Shown here one piece after another: positions 18,953-54,929 of a DNA stretch of 64,000 nt. Within the stretch, counting starts at the first letter, position 1. Each line of letters opens with the position of its first letter. The stretch covers positions 19,415 to 83,414 of the IMG/VR virus record IMGVR_UViG_2913177423_000001; one strand, 5' to 3'. The DNA comes from a virus. Taxonomy: Duplodnaviria > Heunggongvirae > Uroviricota > Caudoviricetes. Below the pieces are notes generated by a model, which searched no databases, had not been told where the DNA came from, and saw only the letters and a list, made by a program, of their open reading frames with translations. The position numbers and the translations under genes were made by a program.

Positions 18953-19705
18953 TTAATCAGCCTCCAGTGGCAATAACGCCTTAGCCATTTCATGAATCAG
19001 CATGGCATCAATGACGCCTAGCGTATGGCCCGGCTTAATCTTTAATGCGGCCTCAAGATAGCCTCTTTCCAGAGTGGTTTTTACGCTTTTCCTGGGCGCT
19101 TGTTGGGGACTATCCGGAAGATCCGGATGGTTGCCAGCCTCATAAGCTACCCGCAACCAGTGCATGAATGTTTCCGCAGACACACAACCACAGTCCACAT
19201 CGATTTTCCCGCGTTGCTGTTCCAGCCATTGCTCAAAATCTAACTTGCAAGCCTTACTTTCAAGTTCATCACCATTGAACTCGACTTTCTGCGACGCTAT
19301 GAGAGCGGCTTCGTACTGTTCGCGAGAGACAACTGACTGGTATTCATCGCTATCAAGGTCACGAATTGGAAGCTCAATCTCACGACAAAAATTCCGCCCA
19401 TAGAACTGGTCTTTTTTGTGGTCTGAGCCAAAAGCAAAAGTCGCGCATGGCGCCATTAAATTGACACTGAGTATGTGACAATAACTCATGCCATCAGGCC
19501 ATCCGCCGCACTTAGGCAACTCCTTCACTAATAAGTCGATCAGCTTCATTGTTTTACCATCTTTGCAAGTCGCCAAAGCCATTTGAGCAAGCGCCAATAC
19601 TTCATCTGCCGTATATCCAGCACCGTGACCATACATTTCTATTCGGGAAATAATCTCTGATATACGCTCTTTATTGATTCTGATCATAGTTCTATTTCCT
19701 TGCAT
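18953..19705 (-). CDS. hypothetical protein (about 245 aa)
   Basis: long minus-strand ORF; start may be internal ATG at 19687. Confidence 0.55.
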   Translation of the reverse strand: MQGNRTMIRINKERISEIISRIEMYGHGAGYTADEVLALAQMALATCKDGKTMKLIDLLVKELPKCGGWPDGMSYCHILSVNLMAPCATFAFGSDHKKDQFYGRNFCREIELPIRDLDSDEYQSVVSREQYEAALIASQKVEFNGDELESKACKLDFEQWLEQQRGKIDVDCGCVSAETFMHWLRVAYEAGNHPDLPDSPQQAPRKSVKTTLERGYLEAALKIKPGHTLGVIDAMLIHEMAKALLPLEAD

Positions 19706-38126: not shown

Positions 38127-39032
38127 ATGAGATCTGTCGCTTTCAAAAACATCTTCATCTATCGTCTTTCACGTGAAGTTAACTGGAGTGCCGCAGAAGT
38201 ATCCGATGCTCTTAGCAAATTCGTGTTTACTCCTTGCGGTTCTCAGGACACAGCTAAAGTCGGTTGGACACCTGTTCTTGGTGACAACCTCACCCATGAA
38301 TACCAGGGTTTTCTGCTAATACAGCATAAGCGAGAAGAAAAAATTCTCCCTTCGCAGGTGCTCAAGGAAGAGTTGCAGAAAAAAGTCCTGAAACTCGAAG
38401 AAGAGCAAGCACGCAAGCTGAAGAAAACGGAAAGAGACAGTCTTAAAGATGAAGTCCTGCATTCCCTTTTGCCTCGCGCGTTCACGAGAAAATCACTCGC
38501 CAAAATCCTGATCGACCGCAGCAACCATCTGGTATTCGTTGAGGCAAGCAGCGCCAAAAAGGCAGAGGATCAGCTGGCTTTATTGCGAAAATCGCTCGGC
38601 AGCCTGCCCGTCATTCCATTCACACCACGCGAACCGCTGGAAATCACAATGACCGAGTGGTTTAAAAACGGCTTCCCTGCCGGATTCACAGCAGGTGAAG
38701 ATGCCACATTAAAGGCTCTGTTTGATGATGGTGGTGCCGTTCGCTGCAACAAAGTTGATCTACAGTCCGACGAGATTATGTCTCACATTGAGGCGGGGAA
38801 AGTAGCTACGACCGTTGCAATTAACTGGATGGACCGCGCGTCGTTCAGAGTAAACGATGATATGAGTATCAAAGCCCTGACATTCTGTGATGATCTCTAT
38901 GACCAGAATGACGATATCGACCGGGAGGATGTAGCACAACGATTTGATGCTGATTTCGTGCTCTTTACGGGCGAATTATCTGCACTGTTTAACGCGCTGG
39001 TGGAGGCCATTGGCGGTGAAGCAGAACGATAA
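38127..39032 (+). CDS. hrdC: recombination-associated protein RdgC homolog
   Basis: near-colinear match to E. coli RdgC ([59 protein letters not shown]). Confidence 0.85.
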
Positions 39033-39048
39033 TAACCGACCGCTTGTT

Positions 39049-39696
39049 GTGAGTGTGTGTGATTTTACGGGGGGAATGGTTGCCCCCTGGCTGGAATACG
39101 GTGTCGATGCCGCTATCGTCGATCCACAGCACTTATCGACCAGTGACGAGCTGATGCAATCAGGTGCCGTTCTGACGCGTATTAGTGCGATCATCGATAG
39201 CGATGAAGTATACGCTTTTCTCCGTAAGAATTTGCAGCGCATCGTGTTTCTGGCCGGGTTCCCACCGTGTACTGACCTGGCTGTTTCCGGCGCGCGCTGG
39301 TTTTCGGACAAGGCTAATAAAGATCCGGTCTTCCAGTTCAAAGCAATGCAGGTTGTCTGGCAGTGTTATGACATTGCAAAGATGATCGGTTGTCCGTACA
39401 TGATTGAAAATCCGGTCAGCAAAATATCGACATTCTGGCGTAAGCCAGATCACATCTTTCACCCTTACTTCTTCACTGCATATTGTCAGGAAGATAACTA
39501 CACCAAAAAAACATGCCTCTGGAGCGGCCAGGGCTTTGTCATGCCTGATGCCCTAATGGACGAATCATTAGGCAAGCCAGATAACAGAATCCATGCCGCG
39601 CCACCAGGGCCTGACAGGGCTAATTTTAGAAGTGCTACTCCACATGGATTCGCAAAGGCAGTTTTCGAAGCGAATAAGGGGGTGCTCTATGAGTAA
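39049..39696 (+). CDS. putative DNA (cytosine-5) methyltransferase-like protein (short)
   Basis: motifs CDFTGG, FPPC (PC-motif) and IENP (ENV-like); GTG start inferred. Confidence 0.5.
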   Translation: MSVCDFTGGMVAPWLEYGVDAAIVDPQHLSTSDELMQSGAVLTRISAIIDSDEVYAFLRKNLQRIVFLAGFPPCTDLAVSGARWFSDKANKDPVFQFKAMQVVWQCYDIAKMIGCPYMIENPVSKISTFWRKPDHIFHPYFFTAYCQEDNYTKKTCLWSGQGFVMPDALMDESLGKPDNRIHAAPPGPDRANFRSATPHGFAKAVFEANKGVLYE

Positions 39697-40594
39697 ATCT
39701 ATAGCAAGCATAGCCATAGAAAAACGGGATACGATGGCTGAAATTAGCTATATGCGCACCATTCGGACTCCGGATGAATATGAGCGTCCGATCTTCAAAT
39801 GGGTAGGTGGTAAATTCTCAGAATTGCCTACAGTGCTTGAGCATCTACCACACGGCAAGCGGTTAATAGAACCGTTCGTTGGTGGCGGTTCCGTATTTAC
39901 GAATGCAGGATTTCGCCACAACCTGCTTAATGATATTAACGGTGACCTGATTAACTTCTATCAGACATTGCAGCGGGAAGGACATTCGCTCGTCACGCTG
40001 TCATATAGTTTTTTCAAAAATTACAACAACGCTGACGCTTACCTCGAAGTGCGTGAGGCATTTAACAGAGGAAAGTATGACCAGCTACATCATGCTGCCG
40101 CCTTTTTGTACCTTAATCGGCACTGTTTTAATGGCGTAACACGGTACAACCAAAATGGCGATTTCAACGTGGGGTATGGCAAATACAAAGCGCCCTACTT
40201 CCCACATGCAGAGATGGAGGCGTTTTTGGCTGATGACGTACTCAAAAACACATCCTTTGTATCAGGTGACTTTGCTGGCGTCATCGAGGCGGCTGGTGAA
40301 GACGATGTGATTTTTTGCGATCCGCCGTATGAACCGCTGCCGGATACAGAGGGATTTACCAGCTATTCAGGAAATAGCTTCCGTTTCGATGAACAAAAAA
40401 GGCTTGTATCACTGTTGGTGGCTGCCCACCAGCGCGGCGCGAAGGTAGTGATAACAAACAGTGGCGCGCCCAAAATTCGCGAATTGTACGAAAGAAACGG
40501 TTTTAAGCTGTACCACATGCCAGCCAGACGGTCCGTGTCATGCAAAGCATCCACGCGAATAGTCGCTAACGATATCATTGCAACGCTCAAATAG
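39689..40594 (+). CDS. dam: DNA N6-adenine methyltransferase (Dam family)
   Basis: KWVGGK motif and catalytic DPPY; ATG overlapping upstream stop. Confidence 0.8.
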   Translation: MSKSIASIAIEKRDTMAEISYMRTIRTPDEYERPIFKWVGGKFSELPTVLEHLPHGKRLIEPFVGGGSVFTNAGFRHNLLNDINGDLINFYQTLQREGHSLVTLSYSFFKNYNNADAYLEVREAFNRGKYDQLHHAAAFLYLNRHCFNGVTRYNQNGDFNVGYGKYKAPYFPHAEMEAFLADDVLKNTSFVSGDFAGVIEAAGEDDVIFCDPPYEPLPDTEGFTSYSGNSFRFDEQKRLVSLLVAAHQRGAKVVITNSGAPKIRELYERNGFKLYHMPARRSVSCKASTRIVANDIIATLK

Positions 40595-40618
40595 AAAAAG
40601 CCCCAGGCGGGGCTTTTG
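40595..40618 (+). terminator. intrinsic terminator
   Basis: hairpin AAAAGCCCC-AGGC-GGGGCTTTT. Confidence 0.65.
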
Positions 40619-40661
40619 ATGCCGATACAGTGTCAATTTGATATCAATATGGTTGTATATT

Positions 40662-40720
40662 AACACCATTACGGCACCACTTTGACACCATTATTGCACC
40701 GGTACATGATAGACACCAAT
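40662..40720. repeat. centromere-like iterons (11-bp periodic (A/G)CACCA repeats), downstream cluster
   Basis: ACACCATTAC GGCACCACTTT GACACCATTAT TGCACC ... Confidence 0.5.
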
Positions 40721-40737
40721 GAGGCATCAAATCGGTA

Positions 40738-41022
40738 TCATTTTGCATCCTCTGACTCAGCAAGCATGAGGATGGCATGTCGAATCAGGTTCAATTTGCT
40801 GCGGTTAAGCTTTTTGCTTAACGCATCGAGCACCCCGTACTCATATTCATTAAAGCTCACGCGTATGGATTTAAAGTCACGCGGCGCATCTTTATCTGGA
40901 GTTTGAGTTGCAGCCTCAACGCCCGGCACCAAATCGGCTTTAATGGCGAACTCTTCAATGCGGCGCTCTAGTTCAGGGTCTTTTACAGCTTGTGCATTCA
41001 CTGGCTCACGGCGCTTAATCAC
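40738..41022 (-). CDS. ParG-like small centromere-binding protein (putative ribbon-helix-helix)
   Basis: 94-aa ORF coupled downstream of ParA (4-nt overlap). Confidence 0.5.
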   Translation of the reverse strand: MIKRREPVNAQAVKDPELERRIEEFAIKADLVPGVEAATQTPDKDAPRDFKSIRVSFNEYEYGVLDALSKKLNRSKLNLIRHAILMLAESEDAK

Positions 41023-41651
41023 GATAACAACTCCTTAATCAACATCTGGATCTCGCCCTTTGCTTTCCCGTTGTCCATTTCAACAACACCCTTCCCTTCT
41101 GCCATGCAGTCACGATAAATCTTACGGTCACGGACGACAGTTTTCAGGAGTTCAAGTTGCGGGTATTCAGCAAGATATTCCCTTGCCTCATTGGCTTCGT
41201 TAACGACCGGGTTGGATGGTGCCATAGTCAGCATGGCATACGCCTTAAGTTTAGGGTTGAAATCCATCGCCTCAGCTATAACCTCAACAAGGTGCGGTAG
41301 AGTATCCAGATCCGGCTGGGAAGGACGGAACGGCACCAGAAGCACATCTGCCGCTGTCATGCCTGTACGCATCTCACGACTGTCGCGACCAGCAGTATCG
41401 ACGACAACGTACTCGTAACGTTTATCCAGATCGAGCAGCGTCTCACGAATATTATCGAACTTCTGCACGCAGTGAATGACAGGGGCAACCTCACCTGCAT
41501 TACGGTCTGACGCCCATCGAGCTGCCGTTCCCTGTTTATCAGCATCAATCAAGACGACATCTTTGTTTTTTCGGGCCAGCTCGGCACAAATATTGACGCT
41601 GGTGGTTGACTTGCCACAGCCTCCCTTTTGACTTGCTACCAGGATAATCAT
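41019..41651 (-). CDS. parA: ParA/ParF-type partition ATPase (small Walker-type)
   Basis: deviant Walker A KGGCGKST; 210 aa. Confidence 0.85.
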   Translation of the reverse strand: MIILVASQKGGCGKSTTSVNICAELARKNKDVVLIDADKQGTAARWASDRNAGEVAPVIHCVQKFDNIRETLLDLDKRYEYVVVDTAGRDSREMRTGMTAADVLLVPFRPSQPDLDTLPHLVEVIAEAMDFNPKLKAYAMLTMAPSNPVVNEANEAREYLAEYPQLELLKTVVRDRKIYRDCMAEGKGVVEMDNGKAKGEIQMLIKELLS

Positions 41652-41714
41652 GTCCGCACCTCGGCTTTATTACGGCTCTATTTTCACACTAAAACAGTAC
41701 CGATTTAACACATC

Positions 41715-41882
41715 AACGGTACAGCAATAGCACCATTCTTAATGCCAGGAGTATAACATCAAATCCGATGGATACTGGTACACGTTTTGCGCCTGAATAG
41801 CACTAAATTAGCACCAAATATGCACCAGTACATTAACAACACCAATTCGGCGTTGTTTTGGTGCCACTTCAACACCATTTTG
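41715..41882. repeat. centromere-like iterons ((A/G)CACCA at about 11-bp spacing), upstream cluster
   Basis: about 8 copies between parA start and parR-like stop. Confidence 0.5.
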
Positions 41883-41940
41883 ACACCAAAACTGAACAAA
41901 AAAGGCTGCAATTTGCAGCCTTAAGATAGTGTATGAACCG

Positions 41941-42285
41941 TCAATCAGGTAGAGAGTCAGCCAGATTGCGCGCCGACGCGCTTTTGGCAACAACTTGCTC
42001 CTTCACTGGCTCAATGGAGGCAGGTCGCTCTTCAACCGCAGCAGGTAGTTCCAGGAAGGACGCCAGCATTTTTCGGATCAGATCCGGGTTATTGTCTTCG
42101 GTTAGCAGGGAAGCCAGTAATCCTGGAAGCCTGCTATCGACTTCTCCCAGCGCAAGCCCTGCCAACAATGCAGTTCTTGCCATATCGCTATGTTTTTTTA
42201 TCTTCTCGCTCGCCGCCTTTTCATTGGCATAAGCCTCTGGGCGAAGATAAATCATCACTTTCTTACGTTCCTGAGACATGGACAT
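41941..42285 (-). CDS. ParR/StbB-like partition adaptor
   Basis: 114-aa ORF immediately downstream of ParM-like gene; followed by minus-strand terminator hairpin. Confidence 0.45.
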   Translation of the reverse strand: MSMSQERKKVMIYLRPEAYANEKAASEKIKKHSDMARTALLAGLALGEVDSRLPGLLASLLTEDNNPDLIRKMLASFLELPAAVEERPASIEPVKEQVVAKSASARNLADSLPD

Positions 42286-42291
42286 ACCTCG

Positions 42292-43248
42292 TTAACCGAT
42301 TGCTTTCAGGCCATGAACAAGAGCAAGTTGCGGGTCATCCGCCACGAAGAAACGGTCATCGCGAATATTAACTTGCTCGCGAATTGCATCAGCCACCAGT
42401 GGTGCGCCGCCACCGATCACCATGACATGCGTATATCCTTTAAAGTCGCCAATCACATCAAGAACGCGGGTACGCAGACGGTCAATACTTGCAGCAATGG
42501 CCTTTTTCACATCACCAATAGCTGATGGGTCATTGATATTGTCGTTCAGATAATCTTCATCGTGGCGGTTAATAATGAGCTGATCGACATTGTAATTTGA
42601 CGTTTCGGTATTGGCTCTGGCAAGTGCTTGCCTTACTTCCCTGGTAACCAGAGAGACGCCAAGATTCGAATCGCCAAAAACACGGGAAACTGCCGTCATT
42701 TGCCCGGCGACCATTGAAACATCAAGGGTAGTTCCACCCAAATCGACGATAAGAACAGAGTGGGCAGGGTTCAGATTGTCGCACAGGCCAATTCCTGCCG
42801 GAATAGACTCCGGGCGTACCGTAACTTTCTTAATCGTGAACACATTGCCTTTATTCAGCGTGACGGGGCGCATAAGGCTGGCTTTTTTGCGCTCGATGTT
42901 ATCGAGATTGTATTGCGCGTCGTCGTCGTAAAACTCCGCCAGAGGCAGCGTGACCACGATTTCTACTTCCTGCGGCTCAATGCCACTGGTCAGCAAAGCA
43001 TGGTGAACAGCCAGGACGTTAAGCGGGCTGTATTGCCATTCCACGTTATTCGTCGGCAGAACATCTGGCGAGATCAAATCATACGAATACTTTTCGTCGT
43101 CAATGACATAGTTAAACGGCTTGCCAGCACCAAATGTTGCGGACCAGCCGCGCTTAAAGCTGTTAGGACTGATGTGCGTGCGAGTTTCCCCGTCGTGTTC
43201 CCACAGCATTTTGATATTTGTTGAACCATCGTCGATAAAAATGCGCAT
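42292..43248 (-). CDS. parM: ParM/StbA-type actin-like partition ATPase
   Basis: MRIFIDDGSTNIK phosphate-1 motif, LIVDLGGTTLD phosphate-2, VMVIGGGA adenosine motif. Confidence 0.8.
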   Translation of the reverse strand: MRIFIDDGSTNIKMLWEHDGETRTHISPNSFKRGWSATFGAGKPFNYVIDDEKYSYDLISPDVLPTNNVEWQYSPLNVLAVHHALLTSGIEPQEVEIVVTLPLAEFYDDDAQYNLDNIERKKASLMRPVTLNKGNVFTIKKVTVRPESIPAGIGLCDNLNPAHSVLIVDLGGTTLDVSMVAGQMTAVSRVFGDSNLGVSLVTREVRQALARANTETSNYNVDQLIINRHDEDYLNDNINDPSAIGDVKKAIAASIDRLRTRVLDVIGDFKGYTHVMVIGGGAPLVADAIREQVNIRDDRFFVADDPQLALVHGLKAIG

Positions 43249-43269
43249 CTTCTTGCTCCACTTCTGAGA

Positions 43270-43435
43270 CACATTTGAGAATCAAATCATGATTTTAAAA
43301 GAGAAGGAATCGAAAATCCACACAATTCGAGATGAAAGAGAGTCGTTATTGAGATTATTTTGAGAATATCTTTAACCACTTTCTGGGTTTGATGCAAAGG
43401 TGAGAACAATTCGAGAATAAAACGAGAATTTTAAA
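43270..43435. repeat. parC-like centromere iterons (TTGAGAAT / TCGAGAAT repeats)
   Basis: about 8 copies of GAGA(A/T)T-core repeat upstream of parM-like gene. Confidence 0.5.
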
Positions 43436-43513: not shown

Positions 43514-43798
43514 ATGAGCGCAATAGCCACCAGCGACACACTTTGTTCCGGTCACGGAGGATTCCCGCCGCGGCTGGTTGCTGAAACCGTTCCCTGGTTC
43601 ACCGTCAACGGTAAGCCAGTTGTTGTGGATGGTGCCATGTTCCCCAGCCATACAGACGGTAACAGCACACATCCGGGATCGGCTGTATCGACGCGGGCAT
43701 GGTATTCAATAGGTGGAAAGGGAGTCGTCTGCGTAGGCGATCCGCTTTCTTGTGGTTCTGTTATCGCCAACGGCGAGGATATTTTTCAGGTCGCATAA
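43514..43798 (+). CDS. PAAR-like spike tip protein
   Basis: TVNGKPVVVDGA and IGGKGVVCVGDPLSCGSVIANGE resemble PAAR repeats. Confidence 0.5.
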   Translation: MSAIATSDTLCSGHGGFPPRLVAETVPWFTVNGKPVVVDGAMFPSHTDGNSTHPGSAVSTRAWYSIGGKGVVCVGDPLSCGSVIANGEDIFQVA

Positions 43799-53405: not shown

Positions 53406-53492
53406 AACGCTTTAATTATGTGTGCTGGCGGGATGATCATTTCCCGTCAGCAACCACGCCCCCAACGATAGCGGGTAGGGAAGGATGCGCAA

Positions 53493-53788
53493 TTTTGAGG
53501 GCATTTTTTACATCATCAATCCATCTGTAATGATGGCATTCTTTACACATTCCAATGTAATCAATAAGTTAACCTAACAAACGATTAAGGAAAATAGCAA
53601 TAAGAATGCCAGACACACACGATATAGACTGAGGGTGATTTTTACATAATCATTGTATATCAATAGGTTACATGAAAACCTAAACTATAAACGACAAGAT
53701 ACATGCGATTTAGATGTAAAAATTGCCCTCAATTGCCGATCGTTGAGGGCAAATTCTACACCTACAGAGTGGTGTAAAAATTGCCCTT
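53493..53788. repeat. iteron array downstream of repA (incA-like), 19-22 bp TGAGGGCAAATCTTACACC-type repeats
   Basis: copies near 53493, 53629, 53713 (inverted), 53741, 53770 (inverted). Confidence 0.6.
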
Positions 53789-54542
53789 AAGACTGTTGAT
53801 AGGTAAATTTTATCCTGGAAACTTTGCCGCCTTCCGTCACTTCTGAGAAGACTATTTTCATTTTTGTATTTTTTTCAATCTCTGCTACAGCCTTCGTTAA
53901 AAAACTTCTCTTAAATTCAGCATACCGCTGGTAGCTTTTTGGCAGCCCGTAACGCTCCCGCATCCATTCGACGCCCAGTATGGCAAAACCGCTTCCATCA
54001 TCCTTTCTGTACTGGCATAAGGACTCATAAAGCCGCATAGAATAAGGATTTGTTAGGCGAGATACTTCGGTAAAATTCAGCCTTGTGAATCTCTTATCAA
54101 GCAGAGTAAAAAATGGCATGAGATATGGATTCAGATGAATAATGTAAGTCCCGCGCCGTGGTGAATAGGCATCCTTAATCATCCAAGGATAAGACTCATA
54201 ACTGTCTTCTGATTCAGTCGATTCATCAGGGTTATATATCGTGACTTTCTTCTCGCTAAGTCCTGAGATGGCCTTACGAATATCCTTGCTGGCTTCGGCA
54301 GAGGGCAAATTATACATCTCTGCATATTCGTTGACCGTTAACTCACAGGCACCTGAACCAAGAACGCCATCCTTAGAAGCATAACGAAGTCTTCCCACCA
54401 CAATAAACAACAATCGCTTTTGGTCGCGCGTCAGGTGATAAGCCGCCTCTGTGATCTCGTTGGCCTGGGCCAGACTACGACTAATTGGTGTCGCTGATTC
54501 AATAAGACTGACGGCTTTTGCCGTTAATTCCGCTCTGTTCAT
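53787..54542 (-). CDS. repA: iteron-binding replication initiator RepA (Rep_3 family)
   Basis: Rep_3-like blocks (LTRDQKRLLFIVVGRL, SYPWM, RLYESLCQYR); start at internal ATG; flanked by iterons. Confidence 0.75.
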   Translation of the reverse strand: MNRAELTAKAVSLIESATPISRSLAQANEITEAAYHLTRDQKRLLFIVVGRLRYASKDGVLGSGACELTVNEYAEMYNLPSAEASKDIRKAISGLSEKKVTIYNPDESTESEDSYESYPWMIKDAYSPRRGTYIIHLNPYLMPFFTLLDKRFTRLNFTEVSRLTNPYSMRLYESLCQYRKDDGSGFAILGVEWMRERYGLPKSYQRYAEFKRSFLTKAVAEIEKNTKMKIVFSEVTEGGKVSRIKFTYQQS

Positions 54543-54565
54543 AACCCTGTGTGATCCTTCAAATG

Positions 54566-54685
54566 GTGAGGGCAATTTTTACATCACTTTGAGGGTAATT
54601 ACTACACCTTTTGAGGGCAAATCTTACACCTTCTGAGGGCAAATCTTACACCGATCACGCTTAGTTGAGGGCAAATCTTACACCT
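54566..54685. repeat. origin iteron array upstream of repA (five direct repeats)
   Basis: GGTGAGGGCAATTTTTACATCA, TTTGAGGGTAATTACTACACCT, TTTGAGGGCAAATCTTACACCT, TCTGAGGGCAAATCTTACACCG, GTTGAGGGCAAATCTTACACCT. Confidence 0.7.
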
Positions 54686-54779
54686 TCCTCCTCTACAGGC
54701 CGCGCCACCACTGGCTCCAGCGATGCCTAAAAAGGATCTAAAAATGATTAAAAATGGAAAAAGGTTTATAAAAATACTC

Positions 54780-54788
54780 TGTGGATAT
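54780..54788 (-). promoter_or_regulatory. DnaA box-like site (rc ATATCCACA) in AT-rich origin flank
   Basis: 8 of 9 match to TTATCCACA next to iterons, AT-rich stretch and GATC site. Confidence 0.3.
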
Positions 54789-54929
54789 GTGAATAGCGTC
54801 ACTTAAGGTGTAAAAATCACCCTCAATAATCACTACACGATTGACAAAATCATCACTCAATCCCCCTCCGAAATCACACACTCCCTATCCTCTGGAAAAT
54901 GAACAGATACCTGCTTATCGGAGGAATAC

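Follow-up and report, generated by a model that had tools for sequence, protein, structure and literature searches.

Evidence for two adjacent partition cassettes of types II and Ib, each with its own repeat array, in a D6-like phage-plasmid

The closest known arrangement to the one described here is the double partition (par) locus of the virulence plasmid pB171, in which a type II system (par1) adjoins a type Ib system (par2). The par2 adaptor, of about 90 amino acids (aa), has a C-terminal ribbon-helix-helix (RHH) domain, and its repeats lie both upstream (parC1) and downstream (parC2) of the operon; the par1 and par2 operons are divergent and have the central parC1 regulatory region in common (PMC6519299). 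We compare with it a locus in a 64,000-nucleotide stretch of IMG/VR virus record IMGVR_UViG_2913177423_000001 (positions 19,415 to 83,414 of the record; the whole stretch is hereafter the window, and its own numbering is used). Judged by its sequence, the window is part of a D6-like (P1-related) phage-plasmid, because the region matches phage D6 and about 120 plasmids and because the four-gene layout of the locus is the same in D6. Escherichia phage D6, a P1-related plasmid prophage, matched at 92% over the ParM/ParR part, and the plasmids are non-mobilizable, roughly 90 kb in size and come from E. coli, Salmonella and Shigella (PLSDB records). An initial annotation of this DNA had proposed two adjacent partition systems of different types. 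On that point the evidence from homology, synteny, structure prediction and the relatives agrees, and we consider it very likely that the locus is a double plasmid-partition locus, consisting of a type II ParM/ParR cassette and a type Ib ParA cassette, each with its own 11-bp repeat array (Table 1). The extent originally given, 40662-43435, fits the outermost repeats, and two terminators listed in Table 1 also belong to the locus.

The adjacent pair of systems is alike in pB171 and here, as are the small adaptor with its C-terminal RHH domain (predicted in our case) and the repeats on both sides of the type Ib operon. The divergent layout with a shared parC1, however, has no counterpart in the window. 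All four par genes lie on the minus strand as two separate operons in tandem, with 289 bp between the type II and type Ib cassettes, a terminator between them and no common repeat, whereas in a pB171-type locus (L008) the divergent operons lie around one common region. The repeat cores also differ, being 11-bp-phased TGGTG here and ATGA/TCAT-rich short repeats in L008, and pB171 ParB has no detectable sequence similarity to the 94-aa partner of our ParA. The replicon is of another kind too, a tailed phage-plasmid rather than a virulence plasmid. Plasmid CP091396, which encodes an identical ParR, served as a stand-in for pB171. The working principle is the same as that of pB171 despite the different layout.

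Three further systems serve as points of reference. The parC centromere of plasmid R1 consists of ten 11-bp repeats in two groups of five. The order parC-parM-parR is the same in R1 and in our type II cassette, and both have 11-bp-phased direct repeats around the promoter, but the core and the grouping differ, with about eleven units in four groups here. The ParF/ParG/parH system of TP228 resembles the type Ib cassette in its small ParA-type ATPase, in its adaptor, whose flexible N-terminal tail precedes a C-terminal RHH domain, and in upstream repeats that double as an operator, as those in the window are predicted to do. It differs in that the ATPase similarity is low, adaptor similarity is absent, the repeat sequence is different and an extra downstream cluster is found here. 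Finally, the type Ia ParA/ParB/parS system of P1 has the same role in a related phage lineage, where it segregates a low-copy plasmid prophage. The ParA described here, however, has only 210 aa, and no large helix-turn-helix (HTH) ParA, HTH-ParB or parS is annotated in p702_18_3, a fully annotated close relative of our element. Combinations of partition systems are on record elsewhere, a 2026 survey having found 971 PLSDB plasmids that combine type I RHH-ParB and type II systems, and more than one system in about 19% of the PLSDB plasmids with recognisable partition systems (PMC13245405). The pairing of type II with type Ib is already known from pB171; the arrangement is not unusual and the finding is fairly ordinary.

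Table 1. Features of the double par locus, in window coordinates.
Feature	Position	Strand	Remarks
G+C-rich hairpin, 9-pair stem, T-runs on both sides	40596-40617	.	terminator scan
Downstream centromere-like cluster, five TGGTG-type units	40658-40718	-	analogous to pB171 parC2
94-aa ParA partner, predicted centromere-binding protein	40738-41022	-	GTG start overlaps ParA stop as GTGA
ParA, 210-aa deviant Walker-A partition ATPase, type Ib	41019-41651	-	GAGGT ribosome-binding site 6 nt before ATG
Putative ParA-operon promoter region	41725-41758	-	extended -10 TGTTATACT at 41758-41750
Upstream centromere/operator-like cluster, eight 11-bp units	41795-41888	-	analogous to pB171 parC1
Intrinsic terminator of parMR operon	41902-41922	-	AAGGCTGCAAATTGCAGCCTT then TTTT; terminator scan; kept in D6 and all variants examined
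ParR/StbB adaptor, 112 aa	41941-42279	-	ATG at 42279, 6 nt after GAGGT site
ParM/StbA actin-like segregation ATPase, 318 aa	42292-43248	-	ATG at 43248, GGAG site before it
parC-like centromere/operator, about eleven (T/A)TCTC units in four 11-bp-phased groups	43266-43434	-	GAGA[AT] on plus strand

The type II cassette has an actin-fold ATPase gene, a ParR gene directly downstream of it and phased repeats upstream around the promoter, as expected of a ParMRC system. ParM matched the Pfam families StbA_N (233 bits) and ParM_N (187 bits), well above their cut-offs, and was 54% identical over its full length to the R1 ParM structures (E 1e-111) and 42% identical to pB171 ParM. Its phosphate-binding motifs DDGST and DLGGTTLD (the latter with the Asp equivalent to R1 D170) and its GGGA motif are intact. 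The start in Table 1 is the ATG from which relatives are annotated; a GTG at 43272, taken by the open reading frame (ORF) lister, is probably not the start. ParR scored 43.3 bits against the Pfam family PF10784 (Plasmid_stab_B), for which the cut-off is 25, matched the pB171 ParR structure 2jd3 (E 3e-7) and falls in PHROG 8671, 'partition protein'. Among PDB entries, those of the pB171/StbB type are its nearest match. The parR gene starts 7-13 nt past the parM stop; the ORF lister's alternative ATG, at 42285, would give a protein of 114 aa.

Upstream of parM, the (T/A)TCTC units fall into groups at 43424/43413/43402, 43362/43351/43340/43329, 43312/43301 and 43277/43266. Read on the plus strand, these are GAGA[AT] copies at 43277, 43301, 43329, 43351, 43362, 43402, 43413 and 43424, and at 43266, 43312 and 43340 the copies are degenerate. 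Both the gene identities and the GAGAAT-core repeats that the initial annotation had placed before an actin-like ParM and a ParR-like partner were confirmed. The positions of the units are kept in the D6, E. fergusonii and S. dysenteriae relatives while the spacer sequence between them has diverged. In one relative (L004), ParR is only 57-62% identical and has the N-terminal region RKVLFYLRPG instead of KKVMIYLRPE, and there GTCTC replaces TTCTC in the two distal (promoter-distal) clusters. This co-variation of ParR and repeat core is as predicted for a cognate adaptor-centromere pair. Between the third and fourth repeat groups, at 43297-43292, lies a conserved -10-like hexamer, TAAAAT, which is the likely -10 element of parM, although a strict promoter scan did not call it.

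The type Ib cassette likewise has the parts expected of its class: a small ParA within the range of about 200-230 aa, a downstream RHH adaptor (assigned by structure prediction only) and repeats beside the operon. ParA has the Walker A sequence SQKGGCGKST, with KGGCGKST at residues 9-16, is without an N-terminal DNA-binding domain, and matched the Pfam families AAA_31, CbiA, MipZ and VirC1. Its closest characterised relative is the ParA of pB171 par2, with 43% identity over the full length (E 6e-64); it also matched the TP228 ParF structure 4dzz (E 7e-19) and falls in PHROG 164, 'ParA-like partition protein'.

The 94-aa partner had no match in Pfam (E up to 10), in NCBIfam or among PDB sequences, whether searched as a single protein or as a profile, and its PHROG is one of function unknown. 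At least 423 homologues came out of a profile search, and none of them carries a Pfam domain. Weak RHH_1 matches were seen in 25 of 62 family members. An AlphaFold2 (AF2) model built on a 62-sequence alignment reached a predicted local distance difference test score (pLDDT) of 78 overall, above 90 over residues 60-90 and above 90 over the strand-helix-helix part; an earlier run on a shallow 12-sequence alignment (pLDDT 56) was discarded. In the model a helix at residues 16-30 is followed by an extended segment and then by helices 59-72 and 76-93, and the top Foldseek matches are all RHH proteins, including ParG (1p94, 74 columns aligned). The predicted layout is thus an N-terminal basic tail (MIKRRE, with the invariant basic residues K3, R4 and R5), the first helix, a linker and a C-terminal RHH domain at about residues 48-93. 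From the model, the partner is predicted to have a C-terminal RHH fold like those of ParG and pB171 ParB; with its basic tail it would therefore have the architecture of these two adaptors. The GTGA overlap couples its translation to that of ParA.

The pairing of this protein with ParA is widespread. The pair recurs in 34 of the 39 loci taken from other species and from metagenome bins; plasmids of Serratia, Aeromonas and Marinobacter and plasmid-like contigs from metagenomes also carry it, with abutting or overlapping genes. Homologues of the pair occur, too, on multi-megabase contigs labelled chromosomes from Entotheonella-type metagenome-assembled genomes (L031, L041), and Rahnella sp. PCH160 has two copies on one 198-kb contig (L032/L033). 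The module is therefore not confined to small plasmids.

The repeats of the ParA cassette lie on both sides of the operon. On the minus strand the upstream cluster begins with the units TGGTGtcaaaa, TGGTGttgaag, TGGCACCaaaa (an inverted copy), a degenerate unit and TGGTGttgtta; after this fifth unit comes a 6-bp phase shift (atgtac), followed by TGGTGcatatt, TGGTGctaatt and TAGTGctattc. In plus-strand terms, [AG]CACCA occurs at 41811, 41822, 41839, 41872 and 41883, with GCACTA at 41800, the inverted copy at 41859 and an isolated copy at 41730. The downstream cluster, which sits in the 3' untranslated region of that operon ahead of the terminator, consists on the minus strand of TGGTGtctatcatgtac, CGGTGcaataa, TGGTGtcaaag, TGGTGccgtaa and TGGTGttaata, spaced by 17, 11, 11 and 11 bp, and reads as [AG]CACCA at 40663, 40674, 40685 and 40713 and GCACCG at 40696. 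The two clusters have an inner layout in common, namely a unit, 'atgtac' and an 11-bp run. Thus the description of a ParA-type ATPase with a small downstream partner, flanked by 11-bp-periodic (A/G)CACCA repeats, held for the genes and for both clusters.

In D6 and p702_18_3 a glutaminyl-tRNA synthetase gene, glnS, lies between the partner gene and dam, and the window is without it (the region in question is 40618-40739 in the window, 2944-4605 in L001 and 4069-5730 in L002). The boundary of this insertion/deletion coincides with the stretch that carries the downstream CACCA cluster, and relatives carrying glnS have a different, partly palindromic cluster of the GGTGCACC type 3' of the partner gene.

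Repeat cores of 5-6 bp are short, and their binding is a prediction, so we considered whether the repeats might not be bound by the adjacent small proteins at all, but either arise by chance in AT-rich spacers or serve another factor, such as RepB, a host protein or a phage repressor. Chance was assessed with 2000 dinucleotide-preserving shuffles of each intergenic region: none of the 2000 reached the observed number of 11-bp-spaced pairs for either repeat set, and the motif count was reached in at most 0.1%. Across the 64-kb window, the only 150-bp stretches with at least two 11-bp-spaced CACCA pairs are the two ParA operon flanks, and the only one with at least two 11-bp-spaced GAGA[AT] pairs is the region upstream of ParM. 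The repeats are real in this sense, and they are conserved: unit positions persist where the spacers have diverged, and a different ParR N-terminus goes with a different core. Motifs of the GGTG/CACC/GGTAC type flank homologous ParA-partner pairs in Serratia, Aeromonas and Marinobacter, and the density of GGTG/CACC-type motifs over 36 loci from other species and metagenome bins was 1.80 per 100 nt upstream, 1.66 downstream and 0.67 in coding sequence. The motif class thus follows the pair into unrelated replicons, with flanks 2.5-2.7 times denser than coding sequence, although some distant homologous loci (e.g. L026 and L054) have few or no such motifs. Taken with the different, 19-22-bp sequence of the RepB iterons, these results make unrelated or chance repeats highly improbable.

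The initial annotation had called the repeats iterons, a term that does not apply: they are of the centromere/operator kind, and the iterons of the RepB origin differ in sequence and lie about 10 kb away. The idea that the CACCA repeats are RepB iterons was rejected, since the latter (TGAGGGCAAATCTTACACC) are unrelated to them. The replication origin itself occupies 53491-54827, where the TGAGGGCAAATCTTACACC iterons lie on both sides of repB at a spacing of about 22 bp. The repB gene (53790-54542, minus strand) is 99.6% identical to that of the RepB-family initiator of p702_18_3, which lies about 12 kb from the par locus there; with its flanking iterons it resembles the incC/incA layout of P1.

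Each cassette has its repeats to itself. No CACCA is found upstream of ParM, and neither flank of ParA contains GAGAA/TTCTC, so that each motif is missing from the control region of the other cassette, in keeping with the claim that each system has its own repeats. The parMR operon closes with an intrinsic terminator, and the hairpin at the far end of the locus ends both the ParA operon (minus strand, after the downstream cluster) and the convergent dam gene (plus strand). The two cassettes are thus insulated, and each has private repeats. Upstream of parA, on its side of the upstream cluster, lies the extended -10 sequence TGTTATACT, conserved across the aligned upstream regions of all D6-like variants, which from its sequence is the putative promoter element of the ParA operon; an isolated TGGTG unit (41735-41725) lies in the leader of this operon.

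From the characterised R1, pB171 and TP228 systems we infer, by analogy, that the locus provides DNA binding, autoregulation, ATPase stimulation and plasmid stabilisation, as follows. The double locus would segregate a low-copy plasmid prophage by means of two independent operons. In the first, ParR dimers would coat the roughly eleven 11-bp-phased (T/A)TCTC units upstream of parM, and ParM-ATP filaments, capped and stabilised by this complex as they grow, would push sister plasmids apart; binding of ParR would also repress the promoter embedded in the (T/A)TCTC array. In the second, the 94-aa RHH protein would bind the 11-bp-phased TGGTG units on both sides of the operon, forming partition complexes and autoregulating the promoter. 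The basic N-terminal tail of the partner would stimulate ATP hydrolysis by nucleoid-bound ParA, and plasmids would thereby be spaced along the nucleoid, as in pB171 par2.

The function assigned to the locus is drawn from homology and comparative evidence, and several points weigh against it. ParA scored 165.2 bits against the NCBIfam model NF041546 ('ParA family partition ATPase'), below its cut-off of 180, which is the naming threshold of one model and not a mechanistic criterion. BLASTP and hhalign comparisons with pB171 ParB and a PDB profile search gave the partner no significant similarity to characterised centromere-binding proteins, and the Foldseek E-values for its model are not significant on their own. 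A strict sigma-70 consensus scan called no promoter on the minus strand of either control region, and a search of the literature for stability data on D6-like elements found none. In the Shigella plasmid pINV, moreover, deletion of either partition system had little effect in the native plasmid (PMC6519299).

The first of these points bear on an alternative in which ParMRC alone segregates the element and the ParA/94-aa pair carries out some other DNA transaction, such as VirC1/VirC2-type processing, 'cop' copy-number control or transcriptional control of phage genes. Besides the sub-threshold ParA score there is a Pfam VirC1 match (E 1.5e-11), the partner is named 'cop' in pYU39_89 (PMC6799933) and has a PHROG of function unknown, and RHH proteins are mostly repressors or antitoxins, which make up the partner's top structural matches. 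However, the VirC1 equivalog model gave ParA only 47.6 bits against a threshold of 313, and the closest characterised relatives are the par2 ParA of pB171 and then ParF of TP228. The two-gene module stands alone beside replication or maintenance genes on plasmids of Aeromonas and Marinobacter and on plasmid-like contigs from metagenomes, with no other partition genes seen in the few kb around it; the Serratia plasmid has a ParB/RepB/Spo0J-family gene upstream. The repeat clusters on both flanks, finally, fit the parC1/parC2 layout of pB171. On balance we regard a non-partition role for the pair as improbable.

The reading of the locus as two partition systems is strengthened by its relatives. 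Phage D6 has the same four-gene layout and the same flanking genes, and its annotation lists orf58 and orf59 as StbA-/StbB-type stability proteins, orf60 as having a 'possible ParA partitioning function' and orf61 as hypothetical. A comparison with other phage-plasmids had been suggested at the outset, and D6 and the roughly 120 related plasmids show the same layout: plasmids matching the ParMR and the ParA cassettes form essentially the same set (98 and 98 in Escherichia, 17 and 16 in Salmonella, 6 and 6 in Shigella). The paper on pYU39_89 lists 'cop, parA, stbB, parM' as one partition system (PMC6799933). In the literature on D6-like elements, with the D6 genome paper outside its scope, we found neither the repeats nor an RHH adaptor described. 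P1-type ParAB elsewhere in the element was considered and rejected, none being annotated in p702_18_3; this also upheld the contrast drawn with the single ParAB-parS system of P1. That relative has no other annotated partition genes and no ParB/Spo0J-type gene, so that the two cassettes are the only partition genes of the element. In the Salmonella plasmid pSa1423-90k (NZ_MK356557.1; L005) no par gene is annotated, and the double par locus appears as many short tblastn pieces in different frames. The frameshifts are probably sequencing or assembly errors rather than real decay, and we set this record aside as frameshift-ridden.

Selection on the genes was estimated from the ratio of nonsynonymous to synonymous substitution rates (dN/dS). 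ParM gave 0.006-0.018 and ParA about 0.05; the values for the partner were 0.06-0.21, and ParR had 0.10. In several comparisons, including those of ParA, synonymous sites were near saturation. By this sequence measure all four par genes are under strong purifying selection. The two cassettes nevertheless have different histories. Between the window and D6 nucleotide identity is 95% in parM and 98% in parR, falls to 54% in the parR-parA spacer and is 74% in both parA and the partner gene; at the protein level it is 98-100% for ParM and ParR, 85% for ParA and 76% for the partner. D6, which belongs to the P1-g2 subgroup with D6-like prophages such as pYU39_89, thus carries a different ParA-cassette allele, followed by glnS after the partner gene. 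Related plasmids with similar backbones carry ParA-cassette alleles of about 98, 80, 75 and 70% nucleotide identity. The suggestion of module exchange is therefore borne out, the ParA cassette being mosaic relative to D6 and present as several alleles among related plasmids.

Mosaicism of this kind raises the possibility that both cassettes are of partition type but that one of them, left over from recombination as a hitch-hiker, is redundant or inactive and adds nothing to stability. The ParA cassette was evidently acquired or replaced by recombination, and precedents for redundancy exist, either system being deletable with little effect in pINV (PMC6519299) and only one of two being critical in SCP1 (PMC13245405). 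Against this, all four ORFs are intact with their catalytic motifs present, the dN/dS values are low although ParA synonymous sites are close to saturation, and both cassettes with both repeat sets are retained in D6 and essentially every related plasmid. We therefore hold a dispensable remnant to be decidedly improbable, and we retain the interpretation of two maintained systems.

Incompatibility avoidance, the other explanation originally offered for the dual system, fared unevenly. GTCTC units paired with a divergent ParR speak for it; the almost invariant DNA-binding half of the partner speaks against it. Across the D6-like variants the RHH half of the partner hardly changes, while its N-terminal 45 residues and ParA vary, a sequence pattern which suggests that diversification of the ParA cassette concerns the ParA-adaptor interface rather than centromere recognition. 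A broader proposal, which we advance tentatively and with slightly more doubt than confidence, is that the partner is the founder of an unannotated family of RHH centromere-binding proteins that are almost always operon-fused to a 210-aa ParA and recognise 11-bp-phased GGTG units on both sides of the operon. The whole cassette would be swapped as a unit beside a conserved ParMRC, giving an insulated tandem double par locus without cross-talk, in which the two systems may diversify independently to escape partition incompatibility with co-resident relatives.

The surroundings of the locus may be described briefly. Divergent from parM, at 43514-43798 on the plus strand, lies a gene for a PAAR-domain protein (Pfam PF05488, just above the cut-off), whose homologue is annotated in D6 as similar to P1 upfC, and beyond it a 300-aa ORF without a Pfam match. 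On the other side, two methyltransferase ORFs (38944-40594, plus strand) lie ahead of the par locus and are convergent on it. One is homologous to the putative DNA-cytosine methylase of D6, and the other encodes a D12-class Dam methylase (Pfam PF02086, E 8e-56); the annotation of p702_18_3 has the two as a single, fused Dam-family gene of 2289 bp.

Double par loci that join type II to type Ib were already an established concept, and the gain is therefore incremental. What is added here is the anatomy of the repeats, the assignment of a widespread but unannotated adaptor family to the RHH class, the tandem layout with its insulation and the evidence for cassette exchange. A small protein family that is widespread yet unannotated in Pfam, NCBIfam and PHROGs thereby gains a likely role, that of an RHH centromere-binding adaptor, and since the DNA motif of the family is predicted as well, this assignment is directly testable. 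E. coli, Salmonella and Shigella commonly carry D6-like phage-plasmids, of which PLSDB has about 120 records. The maintenance of these phage-plasmids on two insulated segregation machines, as opposed to the single ParABS of P1, would bear on the stability of these elements, on the coexistence of relatives through partition incompatibility, and on the exchange of modules among them.

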